From: an archaeon
GTDB taxonomy: Archaea > Iainarchaeota > Iainarchaeia > Iainarchaeales > GCA-2688035
Length of the DNA: 64,000 nucleotides
Direction: 5' to 3'
NCBI GenBank assembly: GCA_035290965.1
Contig: DATDTD010000064.1
Coordinates: 108-64,107 of the forward strand
The notes beneath the pieces were generated by a model. That model did not search any database and was not told the origin of the DNA. It saw only the letters and a program-made list of their open reading frames with translations. The translations under genes were made by a program, and so were the position numbers. Below are positions 9,851-56,793 of this stretch, one piece after another (the first letter of the stretch is position 1; each line of letters starts with the position of its first letter).

Positions 9851-10507
9851 TTATCCTTGCTTTCCAAAATGTTTTTGCCTGTAATGCTTTATAAGCCTTT
9901 TTGCTTCGGGAATGCAGTTCCTGTCCTGAACCCCTATCTTTGTCCTTTTCTGAACCTCTTCGAATGTTTTTGCTCCGTCAAGGACAGCCTCTTCAATATC
10001 CCTGTTTGTAATTTTCAGCGCCTTGTCAATTATTTTTGTGCCTTCTTCCTTTATTCTTTCGGACTGCTTTGTTTTCCTGAAATAATCATTAATGGCTTCC
10101 CTCAAAGCCTTGTCTCCGAGCACTGAACAATGGATCTTTCTTTCCGGCAGTCCCCCCAATCTTTTCATTATGTCCTGGGGAGAAAGTTTCATTGCCTTTT
10201 CAAGCTTCATTCCGCCTTTTTCAGTTACCATTACAGTCAGGATTGAAGTGGATGCAATCGCGCTTGCGCACCCGAAAGTCTGGAACTTGCATTCCCTTAT
10301 CCTGTCTTTTTTTGCGTCAACCTTTATCCATAATTTCATTACGTCGCCGCAAACCGGGCTCCCTATTGTCCCTACTCCGTCAGCCTTGTATTTTTTCGCC
10401 TCTTCCTTTGTCTTGAAAATATTCCTCGGGTTGAAAAAATGGTCCTTTACTTTTTCCGAATAAAACCATCCCTCTTTTCCCACTACATCGGGCTTGAATC
10501 CTTTCAT
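9851..10507 (-). CDS. nifU: NifU/IscU-like Fe-S cluster scaffold with a C-terminal BFD-like [2Fe-2S] region
   Basis: Scaffold cysteines are present in GSPVCGD, FGCASAIASTS and KIHCS. The C-terminal ITNRDIEEAV...EEVQKRTKIG....C resembles a BFD domain. Confidence 0.8.
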   Translation of the reverse strand: MKGFKPDVVGKEGWFYSEKVKDHFFNPRNIFKTKEEAKKYKADGVGTIGSPVCGDVMKLWIKVDAKKDRIRECKFQTFGCASAIASTSILTVMVTEKGGMKLEKAMKLSPQDIMKRLGGLPERKIHCSVLGDKALREAINDYFRKTKQSERIKEEGTKIIDKALKITNRDIEEAVLDGAKTFEEVQKRTKIGVQDRNCIPEAKRLIKHYRQKHFGKQG

Positions 10508-11685
10508 CTTCCCACATCCTTTTTGCTTAATTCAACAGGGCTTAAAGCCCTGAGCTTCTCAATTATCGGCGGCAGTTTTTTTATTACAAAATCAATTTCC
10601 TTTTTTGTAGTCCTTTTGCCGAGAGAAAACCTTATGCTCCCGTGCGCAATTTCATAGGGGATGCCTGTTGCAACAAGCACATGGCTCGGTTCAAGGGAAT
10701 GGGAAGTGCAGGCAGAACCAGAGCTTACGCAAACCCCGAACTTGTCAAGGTAAAGAATAATTGCCTCTCCTTCAACATCCAGAAAAGAAATATTTGCATT
10801 GTTCGGCAGCCTTTTTGAAGGATGCCCCTGCAGAATGCTTTTCGGGATTTTTGCCAAAAGGCTTTTTGTTAGATAATCCCTCAAAGCGATTAATCTTTTT
10901 GCTTCCTTTTTCCTTTCTCCCTGTGCCAATTCCAATGCCTTTGCAAGCGCAACAATTCCAAGAACATTTTCCGTCCCTGCTCTCAAAGAAAATTCCTGCG
11001 CTCCCCCGTGAATCAATGGCTCTATCTTAGTGCCTTTTTTAACAAACAATAATCCTGTTCCCTTCAAAGCATAAATCTTGCTTCCATTGATAGTCATTAA
11101 GTCAACGCCGAGTTTTTCCACATTGATTTCCTCAAAGCCTGCGGCCTGGCAGGCATCAGTATGGAACAAAACATTGTGCTTTTTTGCAATGCGCGCAATT
11201 TCCTTTACAGGCTGAATTGTTCCGATTTCATTATTCGCATACATTATTGAAATCAAGATTGTATCCTTCCTGATTGCATTTTCAAGCTGCTTAAGGTTAA
11301 TCATTCCAAACTTATCTACATCGAGATAAGTTATTTCAAATCCCATTTCCTTTTCCAGCCATTCGCATGCATTCAGCACTGCGTGATGCTCTGTTTTCTG
11401 AGTAATAATATGCTTTCCCTTTTTGCGCAACGCAAAAGCAACTCCCTTGATTGCAAGATTGCATGACTCTGTTCCCGAGCCAGTGAAAATTATTTCTTCC
11501 GGAGAACAGCCCAAGATTTTTGCAATTTTTTCCCTTGCAGAATTCACTGCCTTTTTTGCTTCAAGCCCTATTGAATGGAAGCTTCCGGGATTCCCGAATT
11601 TTTTTTCAAGGAAAGGCGCAATTTCCCCTGCAACCTCATGCCTTGTGTAAGTAGTGGCTGCATGGTCCAGATAAATTCTCTGCAT
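10504..11685 (-). CDS. nifS: cysteine desulfurase (NifS/IscS class)
   Basis: MQRIYLDHAATT start, a SIMYANNEIGT segment, the PLP-Lys region (TINGSKIY) and the active-site SSGSACTS. It overlaps nifU by 4 nt. The ORF track extends to a TTG at 11703. Confidence 0.9.
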   Translation of the reverse strand: MQRIYLDHAATTYTRHEVAGEIAPFLEKKFGNPGSFHSIGLEAKKAVNSAREKIAKILGCSPEEIIFTGSGTESCNLAIKGVAFALRKKGKHIITQKTEHHAVLNACEWLEKEMGFEITYLDVDKFGMINLKQLENAIRKDTILISIMYANNEIGTIQPVKEIARIAKKHNVLFHTDACQAAGFEEINVEKLGVDLMTINGSKIYALKGTGLLFVKKGTKIEPLIHGGAQEFSLRAGTENVLGIVALAKALELAQGERKKEAKRLIALRDYLTKSLLAKIPKSILQGHPSKRLPNNANISFLDVEGEAIILYLDKFGVCVSSGSACTSHSLEPSHVLVATGIPYEIAHGSIRFSLGKRTTKKEIDFVIKKLPPIIEKLRALSPVELSKKDVGR

Positions 11686-11710
11686 TTGCACACCGTTTTT
11701 CAAAAAAGGC

Positions 11711-12043
11711 TTAATTTATTTTCCTGCATTTTCCCATGCAGTTTTTCTGGAAATGATTTTCCATTATGCTCAAAAAAGCCGGAGTTCCCGGCCGTATATT
11801 TCCCGCGGCTTTGCCGAGCGACTTGTCAAGGTTGTAAATCCTTTCCTTTCCGTTTGAAAGGCAGGAAACAAAATTGCAATCCCTGAGTTCCGCAAGCGCA
11901 TGGCTCACAGTGCTCTGCTTTGCGCCTGTTTTTCCGACAAGGGATTGCACGCTTTTCGGGCTTTCCGCAAGCGCCGCAAGAATCTTTATGCGCAGGTCGT
12001 TGCCCAGAGTTTCAAAGCACAGGTGATACGGAGTGTTTCTCAT
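11711..12043 (-). CDS. ArsR/SmtB-family winged-helix transcription regulator
   Basis: LGNDLRIKILAALAESPKSVQSLVGKTGAKQSTVSHALAELRDCNFV matches the ArsR HTH pattern. It is the first gene of the nifS-nifU string. Confidence 0.75.
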   Translation of the reverse strand: MRNTPYHLCFETLGNDLRIKILAALAESPKSVQSLVGKTGAKQSTVSHALAELRDCNFVSCLSNGKERIYNLDKSLGKAAGNIRPGTPAFLSIMENHFQKNCMGKCRKIN

Positions 12044-12104: not shown

Positions 12105-14318
12105 ATGCAAAAGATTATTAAAACAAAAAACACAAATTATCTGGCGTTTTTTTTGGATTCACTGCACAAGATGTTTGACCCGAAAACAATCTGCGTGATA
12201 GGCGCAAGCAGCAGGCAGAACAGCGTCGGTTTTTCCCTGATGAAAAACCTTGCGGGGACTGATTACAGGGGGACTGTTTATCCAGTAAATCCAAAAAGGC
12301 GCAGTGTTCTGGGAATACGCTGCTATAAGGGCATTCTCGATTTGCCTGAAAAAATCGATTTGGCAATAATCGCGACTCCCTCCTTTACTGTGCCTGATAT
12401 TGTAAGGGAGTGCGTCAAGGCAGATGCAAAATCAATTATTGTCCTGAGTTCCGGTTTCGGAGAAACAGGAAAAAAAGGAATGCTGCTCGAACAGGAACTA
12501 AAAAAAATAATTTCGGGAACAGGAATAAGAATGCTCGGGCCAAACTGCCTGGGTTATATACGCACTGACAAAAAAGTAAATGCAAGCTTTGCAATTCGGA
12601 ATGCGCTTCCCGGAAGAATGGCTTTAATCAGCCAGTCAGGCGCGCTCTGCTCGAGCATTCTTGACTGGGCTTTGAAGCAGCACGTGGGTTTCAAGTATTT
12701 CATTTCAATAGGCTCGATGGCAGACATTGATTTTTCGGATTTGATTGATTTTATAGGAAAGGATCCTGAGGTTGAAAGCATTGCGATTTACATGGAAACA
12801 ATAAAGGATGCGCGCAGGTTCATGAAAGCCGCAAGCAATTTTGCAAAAACAAAGCCGATTATTGTTGCAAAATCCGGAAAATTCGAGGAAAGCGCAAAGG
12901 CGGCTGTTTCCCACACAGGCTCAATGGCGGGAAACGATGCTGTTTTCGATGCCGCGTTCCAGAGGGCGGGAATTGTGCGCGTTGAAAACATTCTGGATTT
13001 GCTTGGCTGTTCAGAAGCACTGGCAAAACAGCCCCTGCCTAGAGGAAACAGGCTTGCAATAATAACAAATGCCGGAGGTCCCGGAGTAATGGCAGTCGAT
13101 GCTGCAATAATGCAGGGCTCGAAAATTTCCGTTCTTTCAAAAAAAGCCTTTTCTTCGCTTGAAAAAACAATGCCTGCCAACTGGAGCCACAGCAATCCGA
13201 TTGATTTGCTCGGCGATGCGGATGCGGAAAGATACGCCAATGCGCTTGATGCAGTCCTCAAAGAAAATTCAGTTGACGGAGCAGTGATTATTTTCAGCCC
13301 GCAGGCTGTTTCAAATCCCGAGGCAGTTGCTGAAATTGTTTCCGCAAAAGCGCGGCATTCCAAAAAAACAATCCTTGCCTGCTGGATGGGAGAATCTTTT
13401 GTCGAGCCAGCGCGTGAAATTCTGCGCAGGCATTCTATTCCCTGCTACAAGACTCCCGAAGAGGCAGTTCGTGTTTTCGGATACATGGATTCCTACAGGG
13501 AAAACAAAAAATGGCTTTTTGAAACTCCTTCCGCAAAGGAATTCCTGCCCAATCCTTCAAGAAAAAAAATACGCGAAAAAATTTCCGAGTACATTGCAAA
13601 GAAAACCCTTGTTTTGAACGAGCTTGACTCAAAGCAGATTCTTTCAGAATACGGGATTCCCGTGAACAAAACTCTTTTTGCAAAGAATGCAAAACAGGCT
13701 GTTTCAAAATCACTGCAGATAGGCTTTCCAGTTGCATTGAAAGTTGTTTCGAGTTCAATAACGCACAAAACAGATGCAAATGCAGTGGCTTTGAACCTTG
13801 CATCCAAAAAAGAAGTTGCAAAGGCTTTTTCCGAAATAATCAGGAATGCAAAAAAATCAGCTCCCAATGCAAAGATTTTAGGAGTTACTGTGCAGGAAAT
13901 GATTCCGCCCGGAAACCTTGAACTGATAATTGGTTCCAAAACAGACAATATTTTCGGGCCAGTAATCCTGTTCGGCTTCGGGGGAATTTCAACGGAAATT
14001 TTTCGCGACACAAGCATCGGGCTTCCTCCCTTGACGCAAAACCTTGCAAAAAGAATGATTGCAGGAACAAGAGTTTCAAGGCTGCTCTACGGGGAAAGAA
14101 AAAAATTCAAGATAAATGTTTCCGAGCTTGAAAAAATTCTTATTGGTTTTTCGCATTTTGCAGTCGACTTTCCTGAGGTTGAGGAAATAGACATTAACCC
14201 GATAATGGTTTCAAACAACAGGCTTTTTGCTGTTGATGCAAGAATAGTGCTTTCCGAAAAGGTTCTGCGCAAGGAAAAAAACTTTGTCGGGCTTGCAATT
14301 TCCCCCAAGGCAGAATAG
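12105..14318 (+). CDS. acd: ADP-forming acetyl-CoA synthetase (fused alpha/beta, NDP-forming acyl-CoA synthetase family)
   Basis: Contains a CoA-binding domain (FDPKTICVIGAS...VYPVNP), a succinyl-CoA-ligase-like region (SQSGAL, phospho-His loop SHTGSMAG) and a C-terminal ATP-grasp. An alternative start is MFDPK at 12171. Confidence 0.85.
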   Translation: MQKIIKTKNTNYLAFFLDSLHKMFDPKTICVIGASSRQNSVGFSLMKNLAGTDYRGTVYPVNPKRRSVLGIRCYKGILDLPEKIDLAIIATPSFTVPDIVRECVKADAKSIIVLSSGFGETGKKGMLLEQELKKIISGTGIRMLGPNCLGYIRTDKKVNASFAIRNALPGRMALISQSGALCSSILDWALKQHVGFKYFISIGSMADIDFSDLIDFIGKDPEVESIAIYMETIKDARRFMKAASNFAKTKPIIVAKSGKFEESAKAAVSHTGSMAGNDAVFDAAFQRAGIVRVENILDLLGCSEALAKQPLPRGNRLAIITNAGGPGVMAVDAAIMQGSKISVLSKKAFSSLEKTMPANWSHSNPIDLLGDADAERYANALDAVLKENSVDGAVIIFSPQAVSNPEAVAEIVSAKARHSKKTILACWMGESFVEPAREILRRHSIPCYKTPEEAVRVFGYMDSYRENKKWLFETPSAKEFLPNPSRKKIREKISEYIAKKTLVLNELDSKQILSEYGIPVNKTLFAKNAKQAVSKSLQIGFPVALKVVSSSITHKTDANAVALNLASKKEVAKAFSEIIRNAKKSAPNAKILGVTVQEMIPPGNLELIIGSKTDNIFGPVILFGFGGISTEIFRDTSIGLPPLTQNLAKRMIAGTRVSRLLYGERKKFKINVSELEKILIGFSHFAVDFPEVEEIDINPIMVSNNRLFAVDARIVLSEKVLRKEKNFVGLAISPKAE

Positions 14319-14329
14319 CGGAAACCCGC
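14317..14329 (+). promoter_or_regulatory. copy 1 of the conserved upstream element AGCGGAAACCCGC (upstream of nurA)
   Basis: Lies 63 nt upstream of the nurA ATG and is followed by the TATA-like GATTTTAAACAA. It overlaps the acd stop codon. Confidence 0.6.
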
Positions 14330-14379
14330 AGCCAGTTAGATTTTAAACAACCTTTTATTCTTTTTATTAATTGTTTCGC

Positions 14380-15480
14380 ATGCAGAACATAAACACTGTT
14401 ATTCAGGAGGCTGTTTCAAGCATTCAGGGCTTGGAGCAGAAAAGAAGCGTTTTTGCAAAAAAAATCCTTCCCTTTTTGAAAACAGACTTATCTTCTCTTT
14501 CTTCTCCCGAATTGCTTGAATCAAGGCTTGTTTTTCCCGTTGAAAAAATCCCCCTCGATTTCAGCATCGGCGGAGTAGATTCAGGCTTTGTGAGCAAGGA
14601 GCTTTTATCGCTTGATTTGGTTTTAGTTCGGACAGTTGGAGTGGTAATGAAATTCAAAAACAACTGCCTTGAAAAAGCGGATTATTACCCCAATTTTTTT
14701 TCCTTTCCCCTTCCCTTCCTGAGCAACCATGCGCTTGAACAGGACGAATTCGCCTGTTCCAAAAGCATCCGCAGGCTGCTCTCTGAAAACAACGCGGCAA
14801 AAAAAATAATTGAGCAGTTCAAGCCCAAATACTGTTTCCTCGACGGCAGCATTGTTCCGCAGTACCCCGACAAGCCGCGCAATGATTCTAAAATAAAGGA
14901 TTTTTACCACGAGCTGATTCAGAGCTTTCAGGATTTGTACAAAACAGCGGAAAAAAACAGCTGCACTTTAATTGCCTGCGTTGAAGATTCGCGTGGAAGC
15001 AGATTCAGAAGCATTCTGCAGGAACAGGTTTTGGAAAAAGCAAATGTTTCAAGCACTGCCCTGAACGACTGCTATGACGCAATCCTGCTTGATTATCTTC
15101 TTGAAACAGGGCAGAGAAGCATGGCTTTCAGGTATTCTCCTGAAATAGAAAAGCACCCTGTCCTTATGGATTTTGAAAAGGGATTTGCGGAGCGCGTGCA
15201 TGCTTTTTACATCAAGCCTGTTGCGCTTGACAGGCCTGTTCGGGTCGAATTTCTGCATTCCTCGCAGGACAATTTTTCGGATTTTGTGAATGAAATAGCG
15301 GGAATTGTTTTTTCTTTATCCTCCTTGCACAGGGAATATGCTTTTCCGAGCGTTTTGATTGAAGCAGACCTTCATGCGCGCCTGAAACCCGAAGAGATTG
15401 AAATCGTTTACCAGAAAATTCTTGACAAATTGAGCAAGAGCGTCAACCTGCGCATGCGCAGGAACAACAGGCCTTTCTAA
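14380..15480 (+). CDS. nurA: NurA 5'-3' nuclease (DSB end resection)
   Basis: NurA-like size and motifs (IGGVDSGF..., ...FLDGSIVP...). It sits in an operon with herA. Confidence 0.75.
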   Translation: MQNINTVIQEAVSSIQGLEQKRSVFAKKILPFLKTDLSSLSSPELLESRLVFPVEKIPLDFSIGGVDSGFVSKELLSLDLVLVRTVGVVMKFKNNCLEKADYYPNFFSFPLPFLSNHALEQDEFACSKSIRRLLSENNAAKKIIEQFKPKYCFLDGSIVPQYPDKPRNDSKIKDFYHELIQSFQDLYKTAEKNSCTLIACVEDSRGSRFRSILQEQVLEKANVSSTALNDCYDAILLDYLLETGQRSMAFRYSPEIEKHPVLMDFEKGFAERVHAFYIKPVALDRPVRVEFLHSSQDNFSDFVNEIAGIVFSLSSLHREYAFPSVLIEADLHARLKPEEIEIVYQKILDKLSKSVNLRMRRNNRPF

Positions 15481-15492
15481 AATGTGAGAAAA

Positions 15493-15690
15493 ATGCAGAA
15501 AAAAATTGTAAAGCTTTGTTCGCAGTGCGGTTCGCAGAGCTTAAAGCCTGCAGTTACACCCTGGAAGGCGCAGGCAGCGGCCTTCGGGCAGTACAAGTGC
15601 CTTGACTGCGGCTTTGAAGGATTTATCATAGAGGCGGATGAAAAATCCGCGGAAAAAATAAGGAAAAAACTGCGAACAAATAAAAAATGA
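15493..15690 (+). CDS. small Zn-ribbon protein embedded between nurA and herA
   Basis: CSQC-x27-CLDC four-Cys ribbon with a basic C-terminus. Its stop overlaps the herA ATG (ATGA). Confidence 0.55.
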   Translation: MQKKIVKLCSQCGSQSLKPAVTPWKAQAAAFGQYKCLDCGFEGFIIEADEKSAEKIRKKLRTNKK

Positions 15691-17264
15691 TTCCCGCCAA
15701 AAATAAAAGCACAAAACAAAAAAAAGGTTTTTTTATGGAAAAGGAAATCGGAACAGTTATTTCGGGAATGGATTCCCCGTCTCCCTCTGCGCTTGATTTT
15801 GTTGTAAACCAGGGAGTTGTGCATAGGGGGCAGTTTGTGGAGCTTGATTATTCCGAAGGCACAATGATCTGCCTTGTAACAGATGTTTACAAAACAAACA
15901 GGTATTTTGAAAGAGCCGAAAGCGTAAAGGAATTCGAAAGCTCGGGCACAAAGCTGTTTGAACAGTTTCCAACCGCAGAATGGGAATACTTGGTTGCAAA
16001 AACAAAACCCCTCGGAGTTTTCAGGGGCGGGCTTACAAAAAGAGCGACTCTTCCTCCTGGCCCAGGAACAAGGGTCAGGATTGCATCAGCGGAAAACCTG
16101 AAAACATTTTTTCATTTTTCAGACGACGGTGTTCTGCTTGGAACAGTTGAAAACCATAATCTGGAAGTAAAAATCTCAATGAACAATCTGCTGAAAAAAC
16201 ATCTTGCAATTCTGGCTTTGAGCGGAGCGGGAAAATCTTATTTGGTTTCTGTTCTGTTTGAAGAGCTTTTGGAAAGGAAAAAAGAATCGGGAAGAATTGC
16301 AACAATTGTTTTCGACCCTCATGGAGAATATTCAAGCTTTGCCGAGAGAATTCCTGAAAAGGGAAAAACAGATTACAGCAGCAGGACAATTCTGGTAAAG
16401 GCAGGGGACATAAAAATAGGAGTTTCAAAAATAAGCATTAATTTTTTGGATTCATTGATTCCCGGCTTGAGCAGCATAATGAAAAGAGACCTTGCAAAAA
16501 TACTCGATTCTCTGCAGAAAAAAATGCGCTCGGGAAAAGGCCCGTTTGATTTTCTGGATGTTGTGGAGGAAATAGAAAAAAGCAGCATTCACGAAAACAC
16601 GCGCAATGCGCTTCTCTCCTGGATTCACGGCCTCAATGAGTTGAATCTTTTCGGAAAAACAGACAATCCCGGAATTTTTGACCTTGCACAGCCGGGAAAG
16701 CTCACAGTGGTTGATTTGTCAGAATTAATCGACCTGAGAAAAAAGCAGATAATTGTTTCTTACATTTCAAGAAGATTGTTTTATGCACGGCGCGATAAAA
16801 GCGTTCCGCCTTTCCTCCTTGTTTTCGAGGAGGCCCACCAGTTCGCGCCCCAGCAAACATCCAAAGAGAGCGCAATCAGCAGGGGAATTATCCAGACAAT
16901 TGCAAGGGAAGGCAGAAAATTCGGGGCTTCGCTCTGTGTTATTTCCCAGAGGCCGATTCAATTGAGCACAACAGTCCTTGCGCAGTGCAACACGCATATC
17001 ATCCTCAGAATTACGAATCCCTATGATTTGAAACACATCGGCGAGAGTTCCGAAGGCCTTGATAACAGGGCTTTGGACATGATTAATTCTTTGCGCGTGG
17101 GAGAGGCGCTAATTGTCGGAGAAGCAACTCATTATCCGCTTTTTTTCAAGGTGCGCGAAAGAAAAAGCGCTGAAAGCCGGCACGAAATTTCCTTGGAAAA
17201 GGCGGGAATTGAATTTGAATCCGCAAAAGAGCAGAAAAATTCTGAAATGGAAGAATTTCTTTGA
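15687..17264 (+). CDS. herA: HerA hexameric DNA helicase/translocase
   Basis: HAS-barrel-like N-terminus, Walker A ILALSGAGKSY, Walker B FLLVFEEAHQFAP, and the downstream RKFG...SQRP. Confidence 0.9.
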   Translation: MIPAKNKSTKQKKGFFMEKEIGTVISGMDSPSPSALDFVVNQGVVHRGQFVELDYSEGTMICLVTDVYKTNRYFERAESVKEFESSGTKLFEQFPTAEWEYLVAKTKPLGVFRGGLTKRATLPPGPGTRVRIASAENLKTFFHFSDDGVLLGTVENHNLEVKISMNNLLKKHLAILALSGAGKSYLVSVLFEELLERKKESGRIATIVFDPHGEYSSFAERIPEKGKTDYSSRTILVKAGDIKIGVSKISINFLDSLIPGLSSIMKRDLAKILDSLQKKMRSGKGPFDFLDVVEEIEKSSIHENTRNALLSWIHGLNELNLFGKTDNPGIFDLAQPGKLTVVDLSELIDLRKKQIIVSYISRRLFYARRDKSVPPFLLVFEEAHQFAPQQTSKESAISRGIIQTIAREGRKFGASLCVISQRPIQLSTTVLAQCNTHIILRITNPYDLKHIGESSEGLDNRALDMINSLRVGEALIVGEATHYPLFFKVRERKSAESRHEISLEKAGIEFESAKEQKNSEMEEFL

Positions 17265-17346: not shown

Positions 17347-17667
17347 TTGGGGCTCAACAGTTTTATTTATTCTGCAAAGAAAAATACTCCAAAGGCAATT
17401 CCGTTCGACCCGAACAAAAAAATCGCTAATTTTATCGATGCAACCGGGGCTTCTGTTGTAAAATCAGATTCAGGAAACGGAAACGGCAATGGAAATGGCA
17501 ATGGGAACGGAAACTGCGGCTTCTCAAACGCAGCCGCGGAAAAATTCAACTGGGAATCCTGCCCGCACCTGAAAAAAACTTCTCCCCATACTCTCTGCAG
17601 GCGCTTCTTCAGCATTTGCGCAAAGGAAAAATGCAAGGGAAAGTTTTTGGAACTCGGCGACCAATAA
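17347..17667 (+). CDS. hypothetical small Cys-containing protein with a (Gly-Asn)7 repeat
   Basis: 106-aa ORF with a TTG start and no internal Met. It has five Cys in its C-terminal half. Confidence 0.35.
   Translation: MGLNSFIYSAKKNTPKAIPFDPNKKIANFIDATGASVVKSDSGNGNGNGNGNGNGNCGFSNAAAEKFNWESCPHLKKTSPHTLCRRFFSICAKEKCKGKFLELGDQ
17473..17514 (+). repeat. tandem hexanucleotide repeat (GGNAAY)x7 encoding (GN)7
   Basis: gga aac gga aac ggc aat gga aat ggc aat ggg aac gga aac, read directly. Confidence 0.9.
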
Positions 17668-17745: not shown

Positions 17746-17758
17746 AGCGGAAACCCGC
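17746..17758 (+). promoter_or_regulatory. copy 2 of AGCGGAAACCCGC (upstream of the PolB-like ORF)
   Basis: Lies 57 nt upstream of the ATG at 17803. It shares the longer GAATAGCGGAAACCCGC with copy 1 and is followed by CCTTTTTAAGCG. Confidence 0.6.
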
Positions 17759-17802
17759 TGTCTAAAAGCCTTTTTAAGCGCCAAAACCCACTTCTTCTCT
17801 GT

Positions 17803-19305
17803 ATGACCTCGAGCACTTCTTTTCAAAATTATTTTGCCGCTTCTGAAAAGACTGAGAATACTATTTTTTGGCTCTCCAGCGCAAAATACTTGGAAGAAAA
17901 AAAGGCAATCCTTGTTGAATTCTCTTCAGGAAACCAGAAGAGGACTGCAAGCATTGCCTTCTTTCCAAGCTTTCTTGTTTCAAAAAAAGCAATTTCAAAG
18001 GAAGACCTGAAAAATGAAATTTCCCTGCTCGGAAACCAGAAATTCACTCTTGCAGAAACAGAAACCTGCTTCAGGGTTGTTTCTACAAATTTTTCCTTTC
18101 TTGAAAAGCTTGCAAACAATATTTTTGCCTCGAACAATGCAATTCCTGTAATGCCCTCCCCCGAAAGGCAGTTCCTCATGGAAAAAAACTGGGGTTTTTT
18201 CTCTGCATTCAATTTTTCAGAATCAGAGGAAATTCCCGAAAAAAACTTTTCCCTGCCCAATATCAAAACAGATTTTTTTTCAGAGCCGCTTCCAAAAACA
18301 ATTTCAGAGCTTGCAAAAATAGATTCTGAAGAGGCAAACTCTATTCTCGCGCTTGTAGCGCTTTCAAAGATTCTCTGCCTGCCGCTTGAAAAAATCCCGA
18401 GCGCTGGCTTTTTGCAGCAGGAAATTTTCCTTGAAAACATTTTTTTCAAAAACAATTTTGCTCCGGAACAATTGTCAAAGCACGACATGCACGAAATCCA
18501 TCTTTCCCAGGCAGCGAGCTTTTTCAGGGGCACTCCCGAATTCGACCTTGCTCCTTTGATTCCCTCGCTTCTTACAGATGCTGTTTACAATCTCGGCCCT
18601 GATTCCATAAATTGTTCCTGCTGTGAGCCAAAAACCCTTGATGCAAAAAACCTTTTGCCAAGCACTCTTGTTGAGGTAGAGTTCCTGAAGGACGCTTTTT
18701 ACTTTGAATCCGGCAATTCCTGCTTTTCAAATGCTTTCCATGAAAGCAATTCCCTGAAAGAAAACAGGCTGCAGAGAAAAAAGGAATTTTTCCTCAAACA
18801 GTTTCCAATTGGGCCTTTCAGCAGAAACCAGGCAAGCCAAATTCCCCTGCCTGATGCAGCCGTGCTTGAGCAGGATTCCTCGGCAAAAATTCTTGGCTTT
18901 AAGGAAAGGCACTGGCACTGCATGAAGCAGGAATCCCTTGTTTCAAAAACAATAAAAGCAATCATGGAGGAAACTGCGGAAGCAAATTCCTTCATTGAAA
19001 AAACCCAAAGGGAGTGCTTTGCAGGCAATGGAATAATGGGTTTTTCGGAAATGGAAAAAAACTTTTCACTGCGCTTTGCTCTTGAATACAAGAAATCTTT
19101 GGAATTTTTCCTTCTCAATCTTCCCGCGCATTTCTGCAACAGGGAAAGCAGGTTTTACAATCCTGTTTTTTCAAGTGCAGTAGAGGCTGTTTACAGCAAT
19201 GCAATCATTGCATTCAATTCCATAAAGCAAAACCCTTCCACAGCCGGCATTCCCAACGAGCGCCTGAACACCTATCTGCTTGCAACAGCAAAAAGGGAAG
19301 AATAA
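17803..19305 (+). CDS. truncated, probably inactive family B DNA polymerase-like protein
   Basis: By-eye collinear similarity to archaeal PolB. Matches include the N-terminal domain (SPERQFLMEKNWGFF vs IPFAKRYLIDKGLIP), ExoIII-like AKIDSEEANSILAL, GFLQQEIFLENIFFKNNFAPEQ, motif A-like EFDLAPLIPSLLTDAVYNLGPDSIN and HWHCMKQES vs RWYCKECAES. Motif C DTD is replaced (FAGNGI). ExoI/II and the thumb are absent. Confidence 0.45.
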   Translation: MTSSTSFQNYFAASEKTENTIFWLSSAKYLEEKKAILVEFSSGNQKRTASIAFFPSFLVSKKAISKEDLKNEISLLGNQKFTLAETETCFRVVSTNFSFLEKLANNIFASNNAIPVMPSPERQFLMEKNWGFFSAFNFSESEEIPEKNFSLPNIKTDFFSEPLPKTISELAKIDSEEANSILALVALSKILCLPLEKIPSAGFLQQEIFLENIFFKNNFAPEQLSKHDMHEIHLSQAASFFRGTPEFDLAPLIPSLLTDAVYNLGPDSINCSCCEPKTLDAKNLLPSTLVEVEFLKDAFYFESGNSCFSNAFHESNSLKENRLQRKKEFFLKQFPIGPFSRNQASQIPLPDAAVLEQDSSAKILGFKERHWHCMKQESLVSKTIKAIMEETAEANSFIEKTQRECFAGNGIMGFSEMEKNFSLRFALEYKKSLEFFLLNLPAHFCNRESRFYNPVFSSAVEAVYSNAIIAFNSIKQNPSTAGIPNERLNTYLLATAKREE

Positions 19306-19353: not shown

Positions 19354-19632
19354 ATGGCTTTTTTAACCTTTGCGTTTACTAGTTTTTTTGAATACATAGC
19401 TGTTTTTTTCCTGAGTGTGTTTTTTTTGGAAAAGATTTCAAGGTTTGAAAAAGCAAGGTTATTGTCGGCAAGGGCGCTGCAGTTAGCATTGGGCGCGCCT
19501 CCCTTGATAAAAATAGAGTCGGAAAGGACAATGTTCGAGGTTGCAACCAAGGAATTCGAGCAGAAAATCCTGCCATTGACTATTTTGAGGACTTTTCCAA
19601 ACGGCGAAAAAAAGGAAATTTCCTGGAATTAA
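19354..19632 (+). CDS. doubtful hypothetical ORF upstream of rps17e
   Basis: 92-aa ORF with one N-terminal hydrophobic segment. A competing antisense ORF (19341-19550) is equally plausible. Confidence 0.2.
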   Translation: MAFLTFAFTSFFEYIAVFFLSVFFLEKISRFEKARLLSARALQLALGAPPLIKIESERTMFEVATKEFEQKILPLTILRTFPNGEKKEISWN

Positions 19633-19653: not shown

Positions 19654-19848
19654 ATGGGAAAAGCTGTTCCAAAAGCAATCAAAATGCGCGTAATAGAGCT
19701 CCTTGAGGAAATTCCCGAAAAGTTTTCCATTGATTTTGAGGCAAACAAAAAAGTCCTTGACGCCTTAAAAATGCCTTTTTCAAAAGTAGACAGGAACATG
19801 ATGGCTGCCTTTGTCGCAAGAAAAATCAAGGCACAGAAAAAAGCCTAA
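19654..19848 (+). CDS. rps17e: 30S ribosomal protein S17e
   Basis: MGKAVPKAIKMRVIELLEEIPEKFSIDFEANKKVL....SK..RN.MA.FV.R matches the archaeal S17e pattern. Confidence 0.8.
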   Translation: MGKAVPKAIKMRVIELLEEIPEKFSIDFEANKKVLDALKMPFSKVDRNMMAAFVARKIKAQKKA

Positions 19849-20447
19849 TTTTTGTCTTTTGAATGAACATGAATAATCTGATTTCCTTCGGCTATTTTTT
19901 CCAAATACCCAAGCAATTCTGCCGCCTGTTTCTTTTTGTGTCCGTTAGGCAGGGCTTCAACATATTTTTTTAGTTCACGCACGTTGATTGCCCCTACTTC
20001 AAAAAAAACAAGGTTTCCTTTCGGAGTCCTGCCTACATTGGTTTCAAAGCGGTTAATGAGAATTCCCGCCTTTGAAAATTCTCTTGCAAGAACATTTATT
20101 TCTTCCTTGACTTTGCTTCTGTGCTTCAAAAAATTTTTATCAGCGGCCATGTCCTCGTAAAAGCCGTTTATCCCCTTCCTGCTTGTTCTGTTTAATGGAA
20201 CTGCTTCCAAAAAAACACTTCTTTTGTCAGTGCCTGAAGCAACAAGCCTTGGAAAATGGCTTGGAAACAAAAGATGCGCCATGCTCATTGCAGTGCTGTA
20301 TGCCGGATTGGGATTCCATTTTTCCCTGACTGTCCTTTTCACCAAATGAGGAAATCCTTTGAAACCGAGTTTATGCTTTTCTTTTTGTGAAAGAGAGCGC
20401 ACAGCTGCATGCTCCCCAGTTATATTGACACGGCGCGGCTTTGTCAT
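19845..20447 (-). CDS. hypothetical protein immediately downstream of rad50
   Basis: 200-aa ORF with no recognisable motifs. It lacks metallophosphoesterase signatures, so it is not Mre11. Confidence 0.5.
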   Translation of the reverse strand: MTKPRRVNITGEHAAVRSLSQKEKHKLGFKGFPHLVKRTVREKWNPNPAYSTAMSMAHLLFPSHFPRLVASGTDKRSVFLEAVPLNRTSRKGINGFYEDMAADKNFLKHRSKVKEEINVLAREFSKAGILINRFETNVGRTPKGNLVFFEVGAINVRELKKYVEALPNGHKKKQAAELLGYLEKIAEGNQIIHVHSKDKN

Positions 20448-20510: not shown

Positions 20511-22571
20511 TTACATTATTTCAAGTTTTTCGGGCATTGTTGCCCCGTCGTTTCCCTTGTCTCTCTGCAGGGCGTAAATGCTTGCGCTTGCTGCTTTTTC
20601 CATTTCCCTGTCATGCGTAATAATGAAAATCTGCTCCACAAGTTCGGGCAATTGTTCCCTCATTGTTTTGCTTAAAACGCTAACTGAATGTGCATCAAGA
20701 TTGTGAGTCGGCTCATCCAGAATCAATAGTGAAAGATTCTGTGTTAAAACAAGCGAAAAGGCAATCCTGATGCAGAGAGCGGCAGCGCTTCTTTCTCCGC
20801 CGCTCAAAATTCCTTCAACCCTTGTCCAGTTTCCGTTCCTGTCCTTTACCTTCAGTTCATAGCTTCCCTGTTCTATTTCAAGCCTTGCGCTTGAAAAATC
20901 GCCGTAAGGATAAATTTTCTGCCAGATATCGTTCATTGCAAGATTAATGTTTTCCACAAGCATTTCCCGCAGTTCTGCCTGCGTTGCCTTCAAGGAGTTT
21001 GTAAAAAGAATTATTTTTTCCCGCGCTTTTTCGCTTTTTTTGATTTTTTCCTCAAGCTCAAGCAGCTGTTTTTTTACATCTTCGGCTTTTTTGAGGTCCT
21101 GGCTGAGCTCTCCGATTCTTTCATTGTCGTTTCTTTTTTCACGCTCAAGGCTTTCAAGCAGGGATTTTTCCTCAATCAGCTGCTTCTGGTTTTTTTTAAG
21201 TTCTGATTCTTCAAAGCCTGTTTTTTCAAGTTCTTTTTCAGCTTTCTCAGCATTCTTTTCAGTCTCTGAAAGGCTTTTTTCCTTTTTTTCAATTGCCTCG
21301 AATTCTTTCAAAAGTCCTTTCATTTCAAGGAGGGCTTCTTTTTCCTTTTCCCTTTTCTCTTCAAGCTTTTCCTTCAAAGAGTTTTTTTTGTCAATCTCTT
21401 CCTTTGCCTTTTTCATTTTTCCAAGCAGTTCTTTTTCCTTCAGCGCAATTTCCTCTTTTTCGGCAGTGTTTTCCCCGAGAAGGGATTTTTTCGCATTTTC
21501 ATCAAGCGGCTTTTTGCACACAGGGCAGTCTGCCTTTGCATGCTTGAGCTCGTGGATTGATTTTTCAATGCGCGAAATTTTTTCCTCGTTCAATCCCTGT
21601 TCCTTTACAAGCGCATTCGCTTCCTGCATCAGTTCCTTTATTTCAGAATCGTTTTTGCTTTTTTCCCCGAGGATTTTTTCAATTTCCTTTTCCTTTTCAT
21701 GAAGCTCTTTTTCAAGCGCAGTTCCTGTTTTTCCCTTCAATGACTTTTTTGTTTCCTCAATTGTTTTTTTTGTTTCGCGGATTTCAGCCTGCATTGCAAG
21801 CAGCTCTTCCTTTGCCCTGTGAAATTCCTTTTCCTTTTTTTCAAGCTCTGTTTCTTTTTCGCGGAGCTTTTCAATTTCTTTTTTTGTACCTGCGATTTTT
21901 TCTTCTGCTTCAGAAACAGCCTTTTTCTTTGCCGAGATTTTTTTTCCAAGCTCGGAAAGTTCTTTTTCATCGAAAACTTTTTTCTGCTTTTCAAGCCAGT
22001 CTTTTCTTTCTGCAAGAAGGTCTTTCAAAGAGTTGGAAATTTTCACTGCATTGCCCCTTGCCTGCTCGTATTTTTTCAAGTCAAGCAGCTCGTCAAACTG
22101 CTCTTTTCTCTCCAATGGGGAAAGCCGTAGAAAAAAGTCTATCTGGTTCTGTTCCGAATAAACAGCCCTGCTGAAGAGATTGTAATTGATTTCAAGCGCC
22201 TGTTCAATCGCCCTTGTGACATCGGTTGATTTCGGGCCTGCCAGCAGCTTGTTTTCGCAGTGCAGTTTTGCCTCGTTTGTGCCTTTTCTTTTTATTATTC
22301 TTTCAACTGCAAAATTTTTTTCATTGTAAAAAAATTCCACTGAAACCTTTGCAAATTCCTCTTTGTTCGGCTTGCTTGTAATGATTTCTTCAAGAGAAAC
22401 CCGCTTGCTCTGCAAAGCAGGAAAAGTTCCGAAGAGAGCGAAGCAGATTGCGTCCATGATTGAGCTTTTGCCCGAGCCCATTGCACCTACAAGCACGTTT
22501 GTCCCGTTTTCAAATTCAAAAACGCTTTTTGCATGCGTGCGCCAGTTTTCAAGCGTGACTCTTTTTATCAT
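20511..22571 (-). CDS. rad50: Rad50 ATPase (short coiled coil, zinc hook)
   Basis: Walker A GAMGSGKSS, long K/E-rich coiled coils, a CPVC zinc hook (KADCPVCKKPL), the signature LSGGERS and Walker B LLILDEPT. Confidence 0.9.
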   Translation of the reverse strand: MIKRVTLENWRTHAKSVFEFENGTNVLVGAMGSGKSSIMDAICFALFGTFPALQSKRVSLEEIITSKPNKEEFAKVSVEFFYNEKNFAVERIIKRKGTNEAKLHCENKLLAGPKSTDVTRAIEQALEINYNLFSRAVYSEQNQIDFFLRLSPLERKEQFDELLDLKKYEQARGNAVKISNSLKDLLAERKDWLEKQKKVFDEKELSELGKKISAKKKAVSEAEEKIAGTKKEIEKLREKETELEKKEKEFHRAKEELLAMQAEIRETKKTIEETKKSLKGKTGTALEKELHEKEKEIEKILGEKSKNDSEIKELMQEANALVKEQGLNEEKISRIEKSIHELKHAKADCPVCKKPLDENAKKSLLGENTAEKEEIALKEKELLGKMKKAKEEIDKKNSLKEKLEEKREKEKEALLEMKGLLKEFEAIEKKEKSLSETEKNAEKAEKELEKTGFEESELKKNQKQLIEEKSLLESLEREKRNDNERIGELSQDLKKAEDVKKQLLELEEKIKKSEKAREKIILFTNSLKATQAELREMLVENINLAMNDIWQKIYPYGDFSSARLEIEQGSYELKVKDRNGNWTRVEGILSGGERSAAALCIRIAFSLVLTQNLSLLILDEPTHNLDAHSVSVLSKTMREQLPELVEQIFIITHDREMEKAASASIYALQRDKGNDGATMPEKLEIM

Positions 22572-26390: not shown

Positions 26391-26568
26391 AAGCTTTTTG
26401 CTTGACCTGCAAAGCCTTTTGAGGCTTGAACAGAACATGGAATCTGTTTACGAGAAAATATTGAAGCAGATTAGCACTCCTGAAATCAGCGGGCCGATAA
26501 AGGCAATAGATGTGCAGGAACAGGAACATGTAAGGCTGCTTGAAAAACTGATTGAAAAGCACGCATAG
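26380..26568 (+). CDS. small helical protein, apparent paralogue of the preceding ORF
   Basis: 62 aa (MATESFLLDLQSLLRLEQNMESVYEKIL...EQEHVRLLEKL). It overlaps the previous ORF by 11 nt. Confidence 0.4.
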   Translation: MATESFLLDLQSLLRLEQNMESVYEKILKQISTPEISGPIKAIDVQEQEHVRLLEKLIEKHA

Positions 26569-26629
26569 CAGCCTTGGTTTCAAGCCAAAAATTAATTATA
26601 CAGGTTACTGCCTATTATTCTCGGTTCAA

Positions 26630-28180
26630 ATGCAGGAAAAGCCAAAGCAGCCTTTTGGAAAAAAATTGGATTCCTACGACAACATAGAGATTACCGAGGA
26701 ATTTCCCTTCAATTTGTACAATGTAAAAGCGCAGGAGCTTCCCCAGAACGAAAGGCTTATTGCAAATGCATTGGTTCAATTGATTTTAAGAAAATCCTCT
26801 TTCCACGACCTTGAATCTGTTCTTGGAAAAAACGCTTCGTTGGTTGAAGAAATCCGCAGTGAAATAATCCAGCCCATTGATGCAGAGGAAATGCTCCAGA
26901 AGTTTCCCAGCACAGAGGCATTGGAAAAAATAGGGAAAACCATTCTCGGGATTGCAAAAAAGATTCAGGTGAAAAACCCGGAGCTTTTCACGCAGATTGT
27001 GCTTGATGAAACCTTGGGCTTCAGGAGCCTTTCTTCCTTTATGCGCGACAATCTGCTTGAGGAAATAATGGTTAACGGTTTTGAAAAAAATGTTTTTGTT
27101 TTGCACAAAAGGTTCGGCATATGCAAAACAAACATTGTTGCCCGTAAAAATGGATTCCTGCACGAAACAATTTCAAGGATTGCCGCAACAGCAAACAGGC
27201 AGTTCAGCGAGCACAGCCCCCTGCTTGATGCACGTCTTCCTGACGGAAGCAGGGCAAATGCAACTCTGCAGTATGTGACTCCCGCAGGCCCCTCCCTTAC
27301 AATTAGAAAATTCAATCCAGTTCCCTTTTCAATAACAGATTTGCTCGCAAACAGCACTCTTTCCAGCGAAGCCGCGGCTTTTTTGTGGACAATGATTGAG
27401 GGAATGAATATTTCCCCGAAAAACATTATTATTACCGGGGGAGCGGGAAGCGGAAAAACCTCTCTCCTGAATGTCCTGAGTTTTTTTATCAGGAAGCACG
27501 AAAGAATTATTTCAATCGAGGACACAATAGAGCTTGATTTTGCGGGAAGGGAAAACTGGATTCAGATGGAATCAAGGCCTGCGCTTCACGATATTCCCTC
27601 TGTTTCAATGGATGACCTGCTGAAAAACTCTTTGAGAATGCGCCCTGACAGGCTTATTGTGGGGGAAGTGCGCGGAGAAGAAGCCCAGACACTGTTTGTT
27701 GCAATGGACACAGGGCATGAAGGAATTCTGGGAACTTTACACAGCAACACTGCAAGGGAAATGCTCCTGCGCTTAAAAAGCGCTCCAATGAATGTTCCGG
27801 AACAAATGCTCCCATTGCTTGATTTTGTAATAGTAATGCAGCGCAGGTATAACCCCGAAAAAGGAATGCAGCGCAGGATAAAGCAGATTGCCGAAGTATC
27901 CAGAATGGACGACAAGGTTTTGTTGAGCAATATTTTCGAGTTCAACGAAAAAAAGGATGCAGTGGAAAAAACAGATGTTCCGAGCCATGTCTTTGAAATG
28001 CTTGCAAACGAATGCGGAATGCAGAAAAACGATTTGAAAAAAGAAATCCTGATCCGCCAGAAAATCCTTGACTGGGCTTTTTTGGAAAAAAAGCATTCAA
28101 ACAGCGAGCTCGAGGAAATAATTCAGGGCTATTATTACAATCCCGAAAAAATCCTGAAAAAAGTAAGCGAAAGCCTCTAA
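26630..28180 (+). CDS. type IV pilus/archaellum-family secretion ATPase (GspE/FlaI/VirB11 superfamily), intein-free copy
   Basis: LLDARLPDGSRANA, Walker A ITGGAGSGKTSLLN, Asp box ERIISIEDTIELDF, Walker B RPDRLIVGEVRGEEA and His box TGHEGILGTLHSN. Confidence 0.9.
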   Translation: MQEKPKQPFGKKLDSYDNIEITEEFPFNLYNVKAQELPQNERLIANALVQLILRKSSFHDLESVLGKNASLVEEIRSEIIQPIDAEEMLQKFPSTEALEKIGKTILGIAKKIQVKNPELFTQIVLDETLGFRSLSSFMRDNLLEEIMVNGFEKNVFVLHKRFGICKTNIVARKNGFLHETISRIAATANRQFSEHSPLLDARLPDGSRANATLQYVTPAGPSLTIRKFNPVPFSITDLLANSTLSSEAAAFLWTMIEGMNISPKNIIITGGAGSGKTSLLNVLSFFIRKHERIISIEDTIELDFAGRENWIQMESRPALHDIPSVSMDDLLKNSLRMRPDRLIVGEVRGEEAQTLFVAMDTGHEGILGTLHSNTAREMLLRLKSAPMNVPEQMLPLLDFVIVMQRRYNPEKGMQRRIKQIAEVSRMDDKVLLSNIFEFNEKKDAVEKTDVPSHVFEMLANECGMQKNDLKKEILIRQKILDWAFLEKKHSNSELEEIIQGYYYNPEKILKKVSESL

Positions 28181-36756: not shown

Positions 36757-36769
36757 AGCGGAAACCTGC
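36757..36769 (+). promoter_or_regulatory. copy 3 of the conserved upstream element (AGCGGAAACCTGC)
   Basis: Lies 58 nt upstream of the ATG at 36815. It is followed by TTTCGGCAGGTTATTTAAAAA, in which AACCTGC/GCAGGTT forms a dyad. Confidence 0.55.
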
Positions 36770-36814: not shown

Positions 36815-37300
36815 ATGTCTAACAGAAAAGAGGTTTTGGGCAAGCTTTGGGCGCATTTTAATTTCAGCCTGAATTCCTTAGTGGATAGAATAGTTTTGCA
36901 GAAAACTATTTATGTTTTGTCTTATCTCAACTATCCAAATCTTGGCGATTACAAAAAAGATTTTGCAATGTATATTCACGGGCCGTATTCCCCCCTTTTA
37001 GCACACGATGCTTATGACCTTTCGGAAAATCTTAAAATAAAATCCGGTTTTTCAGAAACAGAGGAAGAAAAAGTCAGTTTATTTGAAGAATCCGTAAAGT
37101 TTGCCGCAGAAGGAAATAATAAACTGGAACATTTTATGGCCTGCGAATTGGTTGCAGACATAATCTTTTTGTATTCTAATGAAAAAGTCAGGGATGAAAA
37201 CAAACTTTTTGAAATCTTGAAAGAAAAAAAAACCTATTTTAACGATTCCGCCAAAGTTTTTGCAGTAGCCAATTTTTTAAAAGAGAAAAAAATAATCTAG
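36815..37300 (+). CDS. Panacea (DUF4065)-like protein, candidate antitoxin
   Basis: RIVLQKTIYVLSYL......DFAMYIHGPYSPLLAHDAYDL resembles the LQKLLYfa...f.aw.hGPv.p.vy core of DUF4065. Confidence 0.45.
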   Translation: MSNRKEVLGKLWAHFNFSLNSLVDRIVLQKTIYVLSYLNYPNLGDYKKDFAMYIHGPYSPLLAHDAYDLSENLKIKSGFSETEEEKVSLFEESVKFAAEGNNKLEHFMACELVADIIFLYSNEKVRDENKLFEILKEKKTYFNDSAKVFAVANFLKEKKII

Positions 37301-37842: not shown

Positions 37843-37871
37843 AAGTCGAACTAATGTGTCTGGTGTTTTTA

Positions 37872-56780: not shown

Positions 56781-56793
56781 AGCGGAAACCCGC
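56781..56793 (+). promoter_or_regulatory. copy 4 of AGCGGAAACCCGC (upstream of nreA)
   Basis: Lies 54 nt upstream of the ATG at 56835 and is followed by GCGCGAACAGGTTAATTAAATTT. Confidence 0.6.

Follow-up and report, generated by a model that had tools for sequence, protein, structure and literature searches.

Gene X, an open reading frame (ORF) at 17803-19305 on the forward strand of a 64,000-nucleotide (nt) stretch of archaeal DNA (contig DATDTD010000064.1; hereafter the window), encodes a 500-residue protein whose predicted overall fold is that of a family B DNA polymerase (PolB), with the N-terminal domain, palm and fingers in PolB order. X almost certainly cannot polymerise DNA and is a pseudo-enzyme at the level of both fold and motifs. 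It starts with ATG, is a true gene, and founds a family conserved in the Iainarchaeia (DPANN). The initial annotation, made from the sequence alone, had described the ORF next to herA as a reduced PolB homologue with dead catalytic motifs, and this core reading is supported because the N-terminal domain, palm and fingers are kept while motifs B and C have disappeared together with the thumb and the exonuclease domain. Compared with the known inactive PolBs, X is further reduced, carries a new conserved inserted module, and is tied to NurA, HerA and Rad50. We propose, at what we judge to be an even chance of being right, that X works as a non-catalytic subunit or adaptor in the machinery that processes double-strand-break ends in Iainarchaeia.

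A word-indexed search returned 43 relatives of X; those bearing names are all annotated as hypothetical proteins, and their named sources are 'Candidatus Iainarchaeum/ainarchaeum', 'Candidatus Diapherotrites' and unclassified archaeal metagenome-assembled genomes. The family profile was also searched exhaustively against 1.84 billion representatives, clustered at 50% identity; 210 clusters scored E ≤ 1e-3, and with at least 141 clusters at the stricter threshold of E ≤ 1e-30 X is not a one-off. The cluster members are ~500 residues long or are fragments, and none among the 150 listed has the length of a PolB. When one genome per species was scanned, 21 X loci were located, in which the named taxa are Iainarchaeum or 'Ca. 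Forterrea' and the others are plain 'archaeon', which places the window in an Iainarchaeia (DPANN) genome. Alignments of 39 (A1) and of 109 X-family sequences were used for the analyses below, and residue counts are over the 109 unless stated otherwise. The literature that we searched yielded no description of a reduced, insertion-bearing, nurA-herA-linked PolB family.

The PolB ancestry of X is best seen in its fold. The AlphaFold2 (AF2) model, computed with the 39-sequence alignment, has a predicted local distance difference test (pLDDT) score of 86.6 and a predicted template modelling (pTM) score of 0.85, and the modelling is poor only at residues 1-17 and 228-246. A structure comparison had been suggested in the initial annotation, and Foldseek indeed returned PolBs for this model: the PDB contained 96 matches at E ≤ 1e-3, and each of the best 50 is a family B DNA polymerase (E from 3e-6, probability 1.0 for most, query TM-score (TMq) 0.37-0.48). 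These include the yeast and human Pol epsilon cores, which are the top full-length matches, PolBs of the KOD/Tgo/9N/Pfu type, E. coli Pol II and P. calidifontis PolB. PolBs also lead in a viral structure library, where the named proteins in the first 34 matches are all DNA polymerases.

The sequence evidence is weaker than the fold evidence and points in the same direction. The 39-sequence profile gave three PDB matches below E = 10, every one a PolB, and the 109-sequence profile gave eight, six of which are PolB or Pol alpha. The best match was P. calidifontis PolB (5mdn, E 0.009), followed by KOD (0.15), Pol alpha (0.32) and Pfu (1.2) in the searches with A1 and A3, and the alignments to four different PolBs are collinear through motif A, the fingers, the RWY helix and motif C. 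A comparison of the X family with a PolB profile by hhalign (E 5e-4, probability 31%) paired X 184-297 with Pfu 330-445; it is weak because the PolB profile contained Thermococcales sequences only (Pfu PolB homologues, all ≥67% identical; the Pfu query is 100% identical to its database entry). Against the single Pfu PolB the hhalign probability was 6%, and the identity of X to PolBs in the structural alignments is 7-10%. Pfam and NCBIfam models gave zero matches to X even at E ≤ 1, and the Pfam search that had been proposed at the outset, with DNA_pol_B and DNA_pol_B_exo1 (PF00136/PF03104), thus came back empty. This silence, the low hhalign probabilities and the low identity would also be expected if the PolB resemblance were spurious and X had an unrelated fold, which we regard as extremely improbable given the uniformity of the best 50 PDB matches and of the named viral-library matches, and given that six of the eight PDB sequence matches are to PolBs with the motifs in collinear order. 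The sole match in a PDB search with the single X sequence was saporin, which we took as chance.

Residues 20-137 (17860-18213) make up a beta-rich, PolB-type N-terminal domain that is modelled with high confidence and lies within a Foldseek alignment over the entire PolB. Here, F53-x-P55 in 'FFPSF' would correspond to PolB 'F-x-P-Y-[FI]-Y', and P120-ERQFL-125, the strongest motif of the family, to Pfu 'PFAKRYLID'. P55 is invariant, and F53, R122, Q123, F124 and L125 are >90% conserved, so that the N-terminal pairing offered earlier is plausible as far as the motifs go, the residue-level match being one that we infer. The 3'-5' exonuclease domain of ~170-200 residues is replaced by a linker of ~25 residues (138-162; 18214-18288; mean conservation 0.28) that joins the N-terminal motif to the helix aligned immediately before Pfu residue 329. 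ExoI and ExoII are gone, as had been read from the sequence, and an ExoIII-like helix remains, minus the Y/D residues. Residues 163-216 (18289-18450) comprise the second part of the N-terminal domain and the palm entry, that is, the helices which in PolB come after ExoIII and before the palm. Its features are the ExoIII-like helix, LSKIL..PLEKIP and EIFLENIFF; 'LSKIL.LPLEKIP' pairs with PolB 'LSRLVGQPLWDVS' and 'EIFLENIFFKNNFAPE' is likewise matched to PolB, with the hhalign alignment to Pfu and the hmmsearch alignments to 5mdn and KOD in agreement.

The degenerate motif A region follows at residues 246-270 (EFDLAPLIPSLLTDAVYNLGPDSIN; 18538-18612) and was aligned by profile and by hhalign to PolB DFSSMYPNIMMKYNLSPDT; here and at the palm entry, hmmsearch and hhalign pair the same segments as the original by-eye alignment. 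The motif A Asp, D248, is D in 79 of the 109 sequences (72%), N in 14 and E in 3, and the motif A Tyr is changed to I or W. Next come the insertion domain (residues 271-373; 18613-18921), delimited on conservation, the isolated model, Foldseek and hhalign, and the fingers (residues 379-444; 18937-19134), which the AF2 model builds as two long helices, 379-419 and 421-444, and which align with those of PolB, Pol II and Pol alpha. The motif B position (437-446) reads LLNLPAHFCN in X and 'llselPkhLln' in the family, and the K, N, Y and G residues of KxxxNSxYG are lost. In the C-terminal palm remnant (residues 445-500; 19135-19302), assigned from hmmsearch alignments, SRFYNPVFSSAVEAV (449-463) aligns with the PolB 'ARWY..AESVTAW' helix after the fingers. 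The motif C position near 478-485 is degenerate and both Asp are absent, with the pattern 'G-y-r-V-l-h-x-n-x3-a-F' in most family members against 'G-x-x-V-x-Y-G-D-T-D-S-x-F' (the profile consensus has 'rVlssskska' where PolB has YGDTDS). There is no thumb, which occupies ~190 residues after motif C in PolB: X stops ~15-20 residues past the motif C position, and other family members terminate ~45 residues beyond it.

The peptides quoted in the initial annotation are all present and collinear (PERQFL, 120-125; AKIDSEEANSILAL, 171-184; GFLQQ...APEQ, 202-223; EFDLAP...DSIN, 246-270; HWHCMKQES, 370-378; GNG, 408-410), and the degeneration of motif B and the missing thumb that it described are borne out. 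Two of its assignments have to be moved. Motif C is lost as claimed, but not by replacement of DTD with GNG, since G408-N-G410 lies inside finger helix 1. HWHCMKQES is not the counterpart of RWYCKECAES: W371-x-C373 precedes the finger helices, and the RWY helix is at 449-463. The pairing of WxC with RWYC, which the 6% hhalign alignment to the single Pfu sequence also gives, is ruled out by the predicted topology and by four HMMER alignments.

The C-terminal tail of the clade to which the window protein belongs (P0002-P0009; relatives 48-62% identical) is shorter than and different from that of the rest of the family, and its motif C tail diverges further. The region concerned is 19240-19302 of the window, about columns 600-660 of alignments A1/A2. 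The usual family C-terminus reads '..GYR(I/V)LH.N...AF(I/V)KG.SSL.LAK.FS....LP.P.I..F', and its end resembles a C-terminal PIP-box-like motif (Q-P-K-I-x-A-F in many) that the window protein does not have.

Averaged over columns, conservation reaches its highest values in the insertion, at 0.51, and the motif A segment, at 0.49. It is 0.43 in residues 20-137 and 0.41 in residues 163-216, and it is low in the fingers, at 0.32, and in what remains of the C-terminal palm, at 0.34. Selection on X now acts mainly on the N-terminal motifs and on the insertion after motif A.

The insertion, of ~100 residues, is the best-conserved segment of X. Four Cys bracket it, in N-C-x-C-C-x-P at the start and W-x-C at the end, and C271, C273, C274 and C373 are present in ~105 of the 105-106 ungapped sequences. 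Its conserved features are H313, R322, P335-x-G337-P338-F339 and D351-A352: G337 and P338 never vary, R322 is conserved in 108 of 109 sequences, and D351 is D in 106 and E in the other three. N263, N283, H313, P335 and W371 are >90% conserved in the family alignment. The insertion modelled in isolation (residues 244-384) has a pLDDT of 86.6, and its top Foldseek matches are mostly GINS subunits (E 0.08-1, probability up to 0.99), namely S. solfataricus GINS, three eukaryotic PSF2 and the B-domain of T. kodakarensis Gins51 (5ghr, target TM-score (TMt) 0.71). Drosophila PSF2 also appeared in the search of the PDB with the 109-sequence profile (E 0.63), and hhalign paired X 335-365, 'PIGPFSRNQASQIPLPDAAVLEQDSSAKILG', with residues 32-62 of human PSF2 (probability 30%; PSF2 sequence verified). 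The GINS B-domain meant here is the N-terminal one of Psf2/Psf3 and the C-terminal one of Gins51/Sld5/Psf1. Like it, the X module appears to be a small beta-beta-alpha-beta unit with the pattern G-P-F-x6-[IV]-P-L-x2-A-x2-L; unlike it, the X module is internal to a PolB palm and has two extra strands and two helices before it. In the models, the insertion looks like a Cys4-clamped, GINS-B-domain-like module at the position of the Pol epsilon P-domain.

Counted from the motif A Asp (D248 in X and, by the position of M644, D640 in Pol2), the four Cys of X lie at +23/+25/+26/+125 and the CysX residues of Pol epsilon at +25/+28/+37/+123, a strikingly similar spacing. The P-domain is a palm insertion of ~100 residues after motif A, with the CysX [4Fe-4S] ligands C665/C668/C677/C763 at its base (PMC6582351), and both the P-domain and CysX are confined to Pol epsilon orthologues according to Kazlauskas et al. 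(PMC7544198). The Cys patterns differ, C-x-C-C in X and C-x2-C-x8-C in Pol2. We rejected homology between the insertion and the P-domain, because its sequence does not match Pol2 and its best 50 structural matches include no Pol epsilon chain. The parallel with Pol epsilon is therefore limited to position and Cys spacing.

Set against the active archaeal PolB3 enzymes (Pfu, KOD, Tgo and P. calidifontis PolB), X shares the N-terminal fold with its motifs F-x-P and P-x-x-R-x-[FY]-L, the palm entry helices, the two finger helices and the helix after them, the motif A context DF-S--[YW]P-L----N-[SG]P[DE]T-N, and a Cys directly after motif A, where X C274 aligns with Pfu C429. It differs in having neither the ExoI/ExoII core nor the thumb nor motifs B and C, in a motif A Asp that is not strict, in its ~100-residue insertion where Pfu has a 14-residue Cys-Cys loop, in its length (500 versus ~775 residues), and in being missed by Pfam DNA_pol_B and DNA_pol_B_exo1. 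The inactivated archaeal PolBs known as PolB2/Dpo2 (Rogozin 2008; Makarova 2014) are predicted to share an operon with arCOG07300 and inactivated paralogues of RadA, and they still have the exonuclease domain with its catalytic residues replaced (PMC4104785). X resembles them as an archaeal PolB paralogue with disrupted motifs for which a non-catalytic repair or regulatory role is proposed from the gene neighbourhood. However, X lacks the exonuclease domain and the thumb, has the Cys4-clamped insertion, and is linked to nurA, herA and rad50, and it is thus set apart from PolB2/Dpo2, as described, by both architecture and neighbourhood. We saw no RadA-like or arCOG07300-like genes among the neighbours of X in 27 loci, which include nurA, herA, rpoK and rad50. 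The inactive C-terminal PolB module of Pol epsilon (the Pol2 C-half) is a replisome scaffold (PMC2669801, PMC7544198) and is, like X, PolB-derived with catalysis lost, which provides a precedent for a working dead PolB. Unlike X, which is a stand-alone protein of 500 residues in a putative repair regulon, the Pol2 C-half is fused to an active polymerase, binds CMG, and retains a degenerate exonuclease-polymerase layout and a CysA/CysB C-terminal domain.

DNA polymerase catalysis by X is very unlikely because motifs B and C are replaced and D248 is D in just 79 of 109 sequences. Intact catalytic residues had been named initially as a finding that would change the interpretation; the alignments confirm the loss of motifs B and C and show the motif A Asp retained in the window protein. 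The retention of D248 in X and in 72% of the family, together with the near-invariance of H313, R322 and D351, might suggest that X is still an enzyme, either an unconventional nucleotidyl transferase or polymerase using D248 and other acids, or a nuclease using N283, H313, R322 and D351. Moreover, B2-type PolBs once deemed inactive may keep activity, and primer-independent PolBs function minus the first motif C Asp (PMC7544198). In X, however, motif B and both motif C Asp are missing, 14 of the 109 sequences have N in place of D248, and a duplex would find no thumb to hold it. The G-P-F...P-L-x-D-A...L pattern fits the structural signature of the GINS B-domain and not a known active site, and no nuclease or transferase family in Pfam or NCBIfam matches X. 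We consider an enzymatic X quite improbable.

X lies between herA and rad50, as first described. Upstream on the same strand are nurA (14371-15480; Pfam PF09376, E 4e-9) and herA (15687-17264; Pfam PF01935 (DUF87/HerA), E 1.6e-30, plus a HAS barrel), both of which are its partners in synteny and in the putative regulon. Downstream are rpoK (19354-19632, forward strand; Rpb6 in Pfam, RNA polymerase subunit K in NCBIfam) and the convergent rad50 with its zinc hook (20511-22571, reverse strand; Pfam AAA_23, SMC_N and Rad50_zn_hook). The conservation of this neighbourhood, which the initial annotation had proposed to examine, is clear: 24 Iainarchaeia loci have the recurring order nurA, herA, X, rpoK ... 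rad50 (convergent), EF1-beta ... CCA enzyme gene, with occasional unrelated insertions, and the order nurA-herA-X ... rad50 is kept in essentially all of them. The ORFs at 19845-20447 (downstream of rad50) and 17347-17667 (between herA and X) are not conserved in other loci, and hence we do not count them as parts of the arrangement. Identity across the loci, with fragments from partial contigs excluded, is ~27-35% for X, 49-69% for herA, 45-58% for nurA and 38-50% for rad50.

Adjacency alone proves little because the synteny takes in housekeeping genes. X could have a housekeeping role unrelated to repair, or be a decaying remnant, and sit near herA through frozen gene order: the synteny covers rpoK, S17e, EF1-beta, aS21 and the CCA enzyme gene, and X, at ~30% identity, evolves faster than herA or nurA. 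On the other hand, the linkage to nurA, herA and rad50 persists in the divergent locus L025 with other neighbours changed, and the invariant residues and the confident fold over 141+ clusters speak against decay. The upstream element described below, which is found at nurA, herA, rad50 and nreA and never at the housekeeping neighbours, also argues against this explanation, and we hold it to be improbable.

The strongest link between X and the end-resection genes is a shared upstream cis-element. The 13-mer AGCGGAAACCCGC occurs exactly three times in the 64 kb, upstream of nurA (14317-14329), of X (17746-17758) and of nreA (56781-56793), all on the forward strand; that X has a shared upstream element had been noted at the outset. 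The nreA gene (56835-58067) has the Pfam domains Nre_N and Nre_C, and NreA is a PCNA-associated repair factor. At X, the element is an inverted repeat, AGCGG-N4-CCGCT, if read through the T at 17759; its conserved core CGGAAACC begins at 17748, 55 nt ahead of the ATG, and the TATA-like CTTTTTAAG follows at 17770-17778. The element stands roughly 10-20 nt upstream of the TATA-like box at X, nurA, herA, nreA and some rad50 genes. It is found upstream of X in 21 of 21 loci, at -50 to -61, and its form varies between lineages: most genomes carry 'aCCaCCGGCA', and the window shares '[GC]CGGAAA[CT]CC' with L002 and L021.

The core lies 40-70 nt before the start of X in 21 of 21 loci, of nurA in 10 of 16, of herA in 6 of 20 (the herA genes with their own promoter) and of rad50 in 3 of 18; in the same interval it was found at none of 19 rpoK, 18 EF1-beta and 12 CCA enzyme genes. 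In the window, 4 of ~71 ORFs have it (nurA, X, nreA and an unknown ORF of 161 residues), and in low-GC loci its hexamer occurs 1-6 times per ~17 kb, nearly always at these promoters. We rejected a generic promoter feature because of its absence from the rpoK, EF1-beta and CCA enzyme genes and its presence at just 4 of ~71 window ORFs. The element appears operator-like and may define a candidate DNA-repair regulon, the site having drifted in sequence from lineage to lineage, and X would be the most consistent member of what resembles such a regulon. The linkage to end resection that was first suggested is therefore much stronger than adjacency, with synteny in more than 20 genomes and a shared promoter element. 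It also holds in the divergent member P0043 (364 residues), which follows nurA-(HAD)-herA near rad50 and has lost rpoK and EF1-beta as neighbours. P0043, which keeps nurA-herA-X near rad50, and the shared element are the two observations that make the link between X and repair specific.

In its descent from a PolB, X has retained the N-terminal domain, both finger helices and a vestigial palm, and has shed the catalytic motifs, the thumb and the 3'-5' exonuclease domain. X is transcribed from a promoter with an operator-like element common to nurA, herA, sometimes rad50 and, in the window, nreA. If X is indeed an end-processing adaptor, the remnant DNA-binding surfaces of PolB (the N-terminal single-strand channel and the palm/finger cleft) might recognise a DNA end or a single-strand/duplex junction, helped by a basic helix of the insertion with the consensus residues K319/R322/R324-K327. 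GINS B-domains are protein-protein docking modules, and the Cys-clamped, GINS-B-like insertion may dock a partner such as HerA-NurA or Rad50.

The main rival to an adaptor in end processing is a scaffold at the replisome or fork, in which X would be a dead PolB that tethers replication proteins, with the insertion binding GAN/RecJ-Cdc45 or PolD DP1. The insertion finds its best structural matches in GINS, including the Gins51 B-domain of the GAN complex, and has PSF2-like sequence; the C-terminal domain of Gins51 is reported to bind GAN and DP1 (PMC9023282), and a dead PolB is a replisome scaffold in Pol epsilon (PMC7544198, PMC2669801). However, the GINS similarity is below significance, no replication gene is among the conserved neighbours, and the element is common to nurA, herA, rad50 and nreA and was missing at the one PCNA gene checked (L025). 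We view the replisome scaffold as unlikely.

Several points weigh against X as an end-processing adaptor. The sequence-level PolB signal is marginal (best E 0.009) and Pfam DNA_pol_B is silent. The evidence for GINS B-domain likeness is weak, falling below significance in each test (Foldseek 0.08, profile 0.63, hhalign 30%), and a GINS-like module on a dead PolB would suit a replisome role equally well. The four Cys probably bind a metal (Zn or Fe-S), as judged from their invariance. The synteny also spans the unrelated rpoK, S17e, EF1-beta and CCA enzyme genes, and adjacency alone is weak. In the divergent clade P0041/L026, X is not adjacent to herA; X-herA synteny is thus not universal. The case rests largely on the shared element. 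The P0041-clade gene in L026 (8001-9458; 485 residues) is flanked by glycosyltransferases and Alba, with a CCACCGGACA site ~105 nt upstream.

Archaeal mre11 normally adjoins rad50. Here, the flanks of rad50 hold EF1-beta and small non-conserved ORFs, and an mre11 neighbour is seen in no locus. A tblastn search with Pfu Mre11 (sequence verified), covering the 64-kb window and 27 loci only, gave nothing better than E ~1, and Pfam scans of the larger window ORFs found no Metallophos protein. X itself is not a candidate Mre11, with no Metallophos match in Pfam and a fold that is PolB and not that of a calcineurin-like phosphoesterase. A more speculative proposal, which we consider unlikely, is that X replaces or joins Mre11 beside Rad50/HerA-NurA as a metal-cluster (possibly Fe-S) DNA-end sensor docked via the insertion, and/or that X has a metal-clamped insertion at the P-domain site outside Pol epsilon. 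If true, a Cys4-clamped insertion at the P-domain/CysX site in a DPANN archaeon would bear on the origin of this Pol epsilon feature, and the X family bears on whether the P-domain/CysX position of PolB can independently gain metal-clamped insertions. The roles of inactivated PolB homologues such as PolB2/Dpo2 and the Pol epsilon C-half are largely unsolved, and the X family offers a testable entry to what dead polymerases do and to how reduced DPANN genomes organise double-strand-break repair. The operator-like element, in turn, would define a candidate DNA-repair regulon in a phylum without genetics.

Other ORFs carry sequences related to the element. The unknown ORF of 161 residues (36815-37300, forward strand) has no Pfam match and a one-mismatch copy of the element upstream at 36757-36769; next along the window come genes for a PIN-domain protein (37312-37842) and an ABCE1/RLI-like protein (37854-39665). 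In L012, a free-standing LAGLIDADG-domain gene (12680-13522, forward strand) has a CCGGCA element 51 nt before its start and may be a regulon member (see also L002 16448-17269). The ORF of 106 residues between herA and X (17347-17667, forward strand) contains seven tandem GGNAAY hexamers at 17473-17514 (GGAAAC GGAAAC GGCAAT GGAAAT GGCAAT GGGAAC GGAAAC), which encode (GN)7. When joined, the hexamers read CGGAAAC and CGGCAAT, like the cores of both element variants, ~290 nt upstream of X, and the repeat could be coding sequence, an array of binding sites, or a coincidence.

Upstream of the nurA region lie Fe-S assembly genes and an ArsR/HTH_5 regulator (window 10504-12043, reverse strand; L001 1-1969), with a NifS-like cysteine desulfurase and, in L001, NifU. 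A 737-residue acetyl-CoA-synthetase-like gene in the window, and two small ORFs in L001, separate them from the nurA region. A conserved Fe-S assembly neighbourhood is thus found near a gene with a putative metal-cluster site. Farther away in the window, a type II/IV secretion (FlaI/T2SSE-like) ATPase of 1089 residues (51634-54903, reverse strand) is split by an intein with a LAGLIDADG homing-endonuclease domain, and a second T2SSE ATPase, free of inteins, is encoded at 26552-28180.

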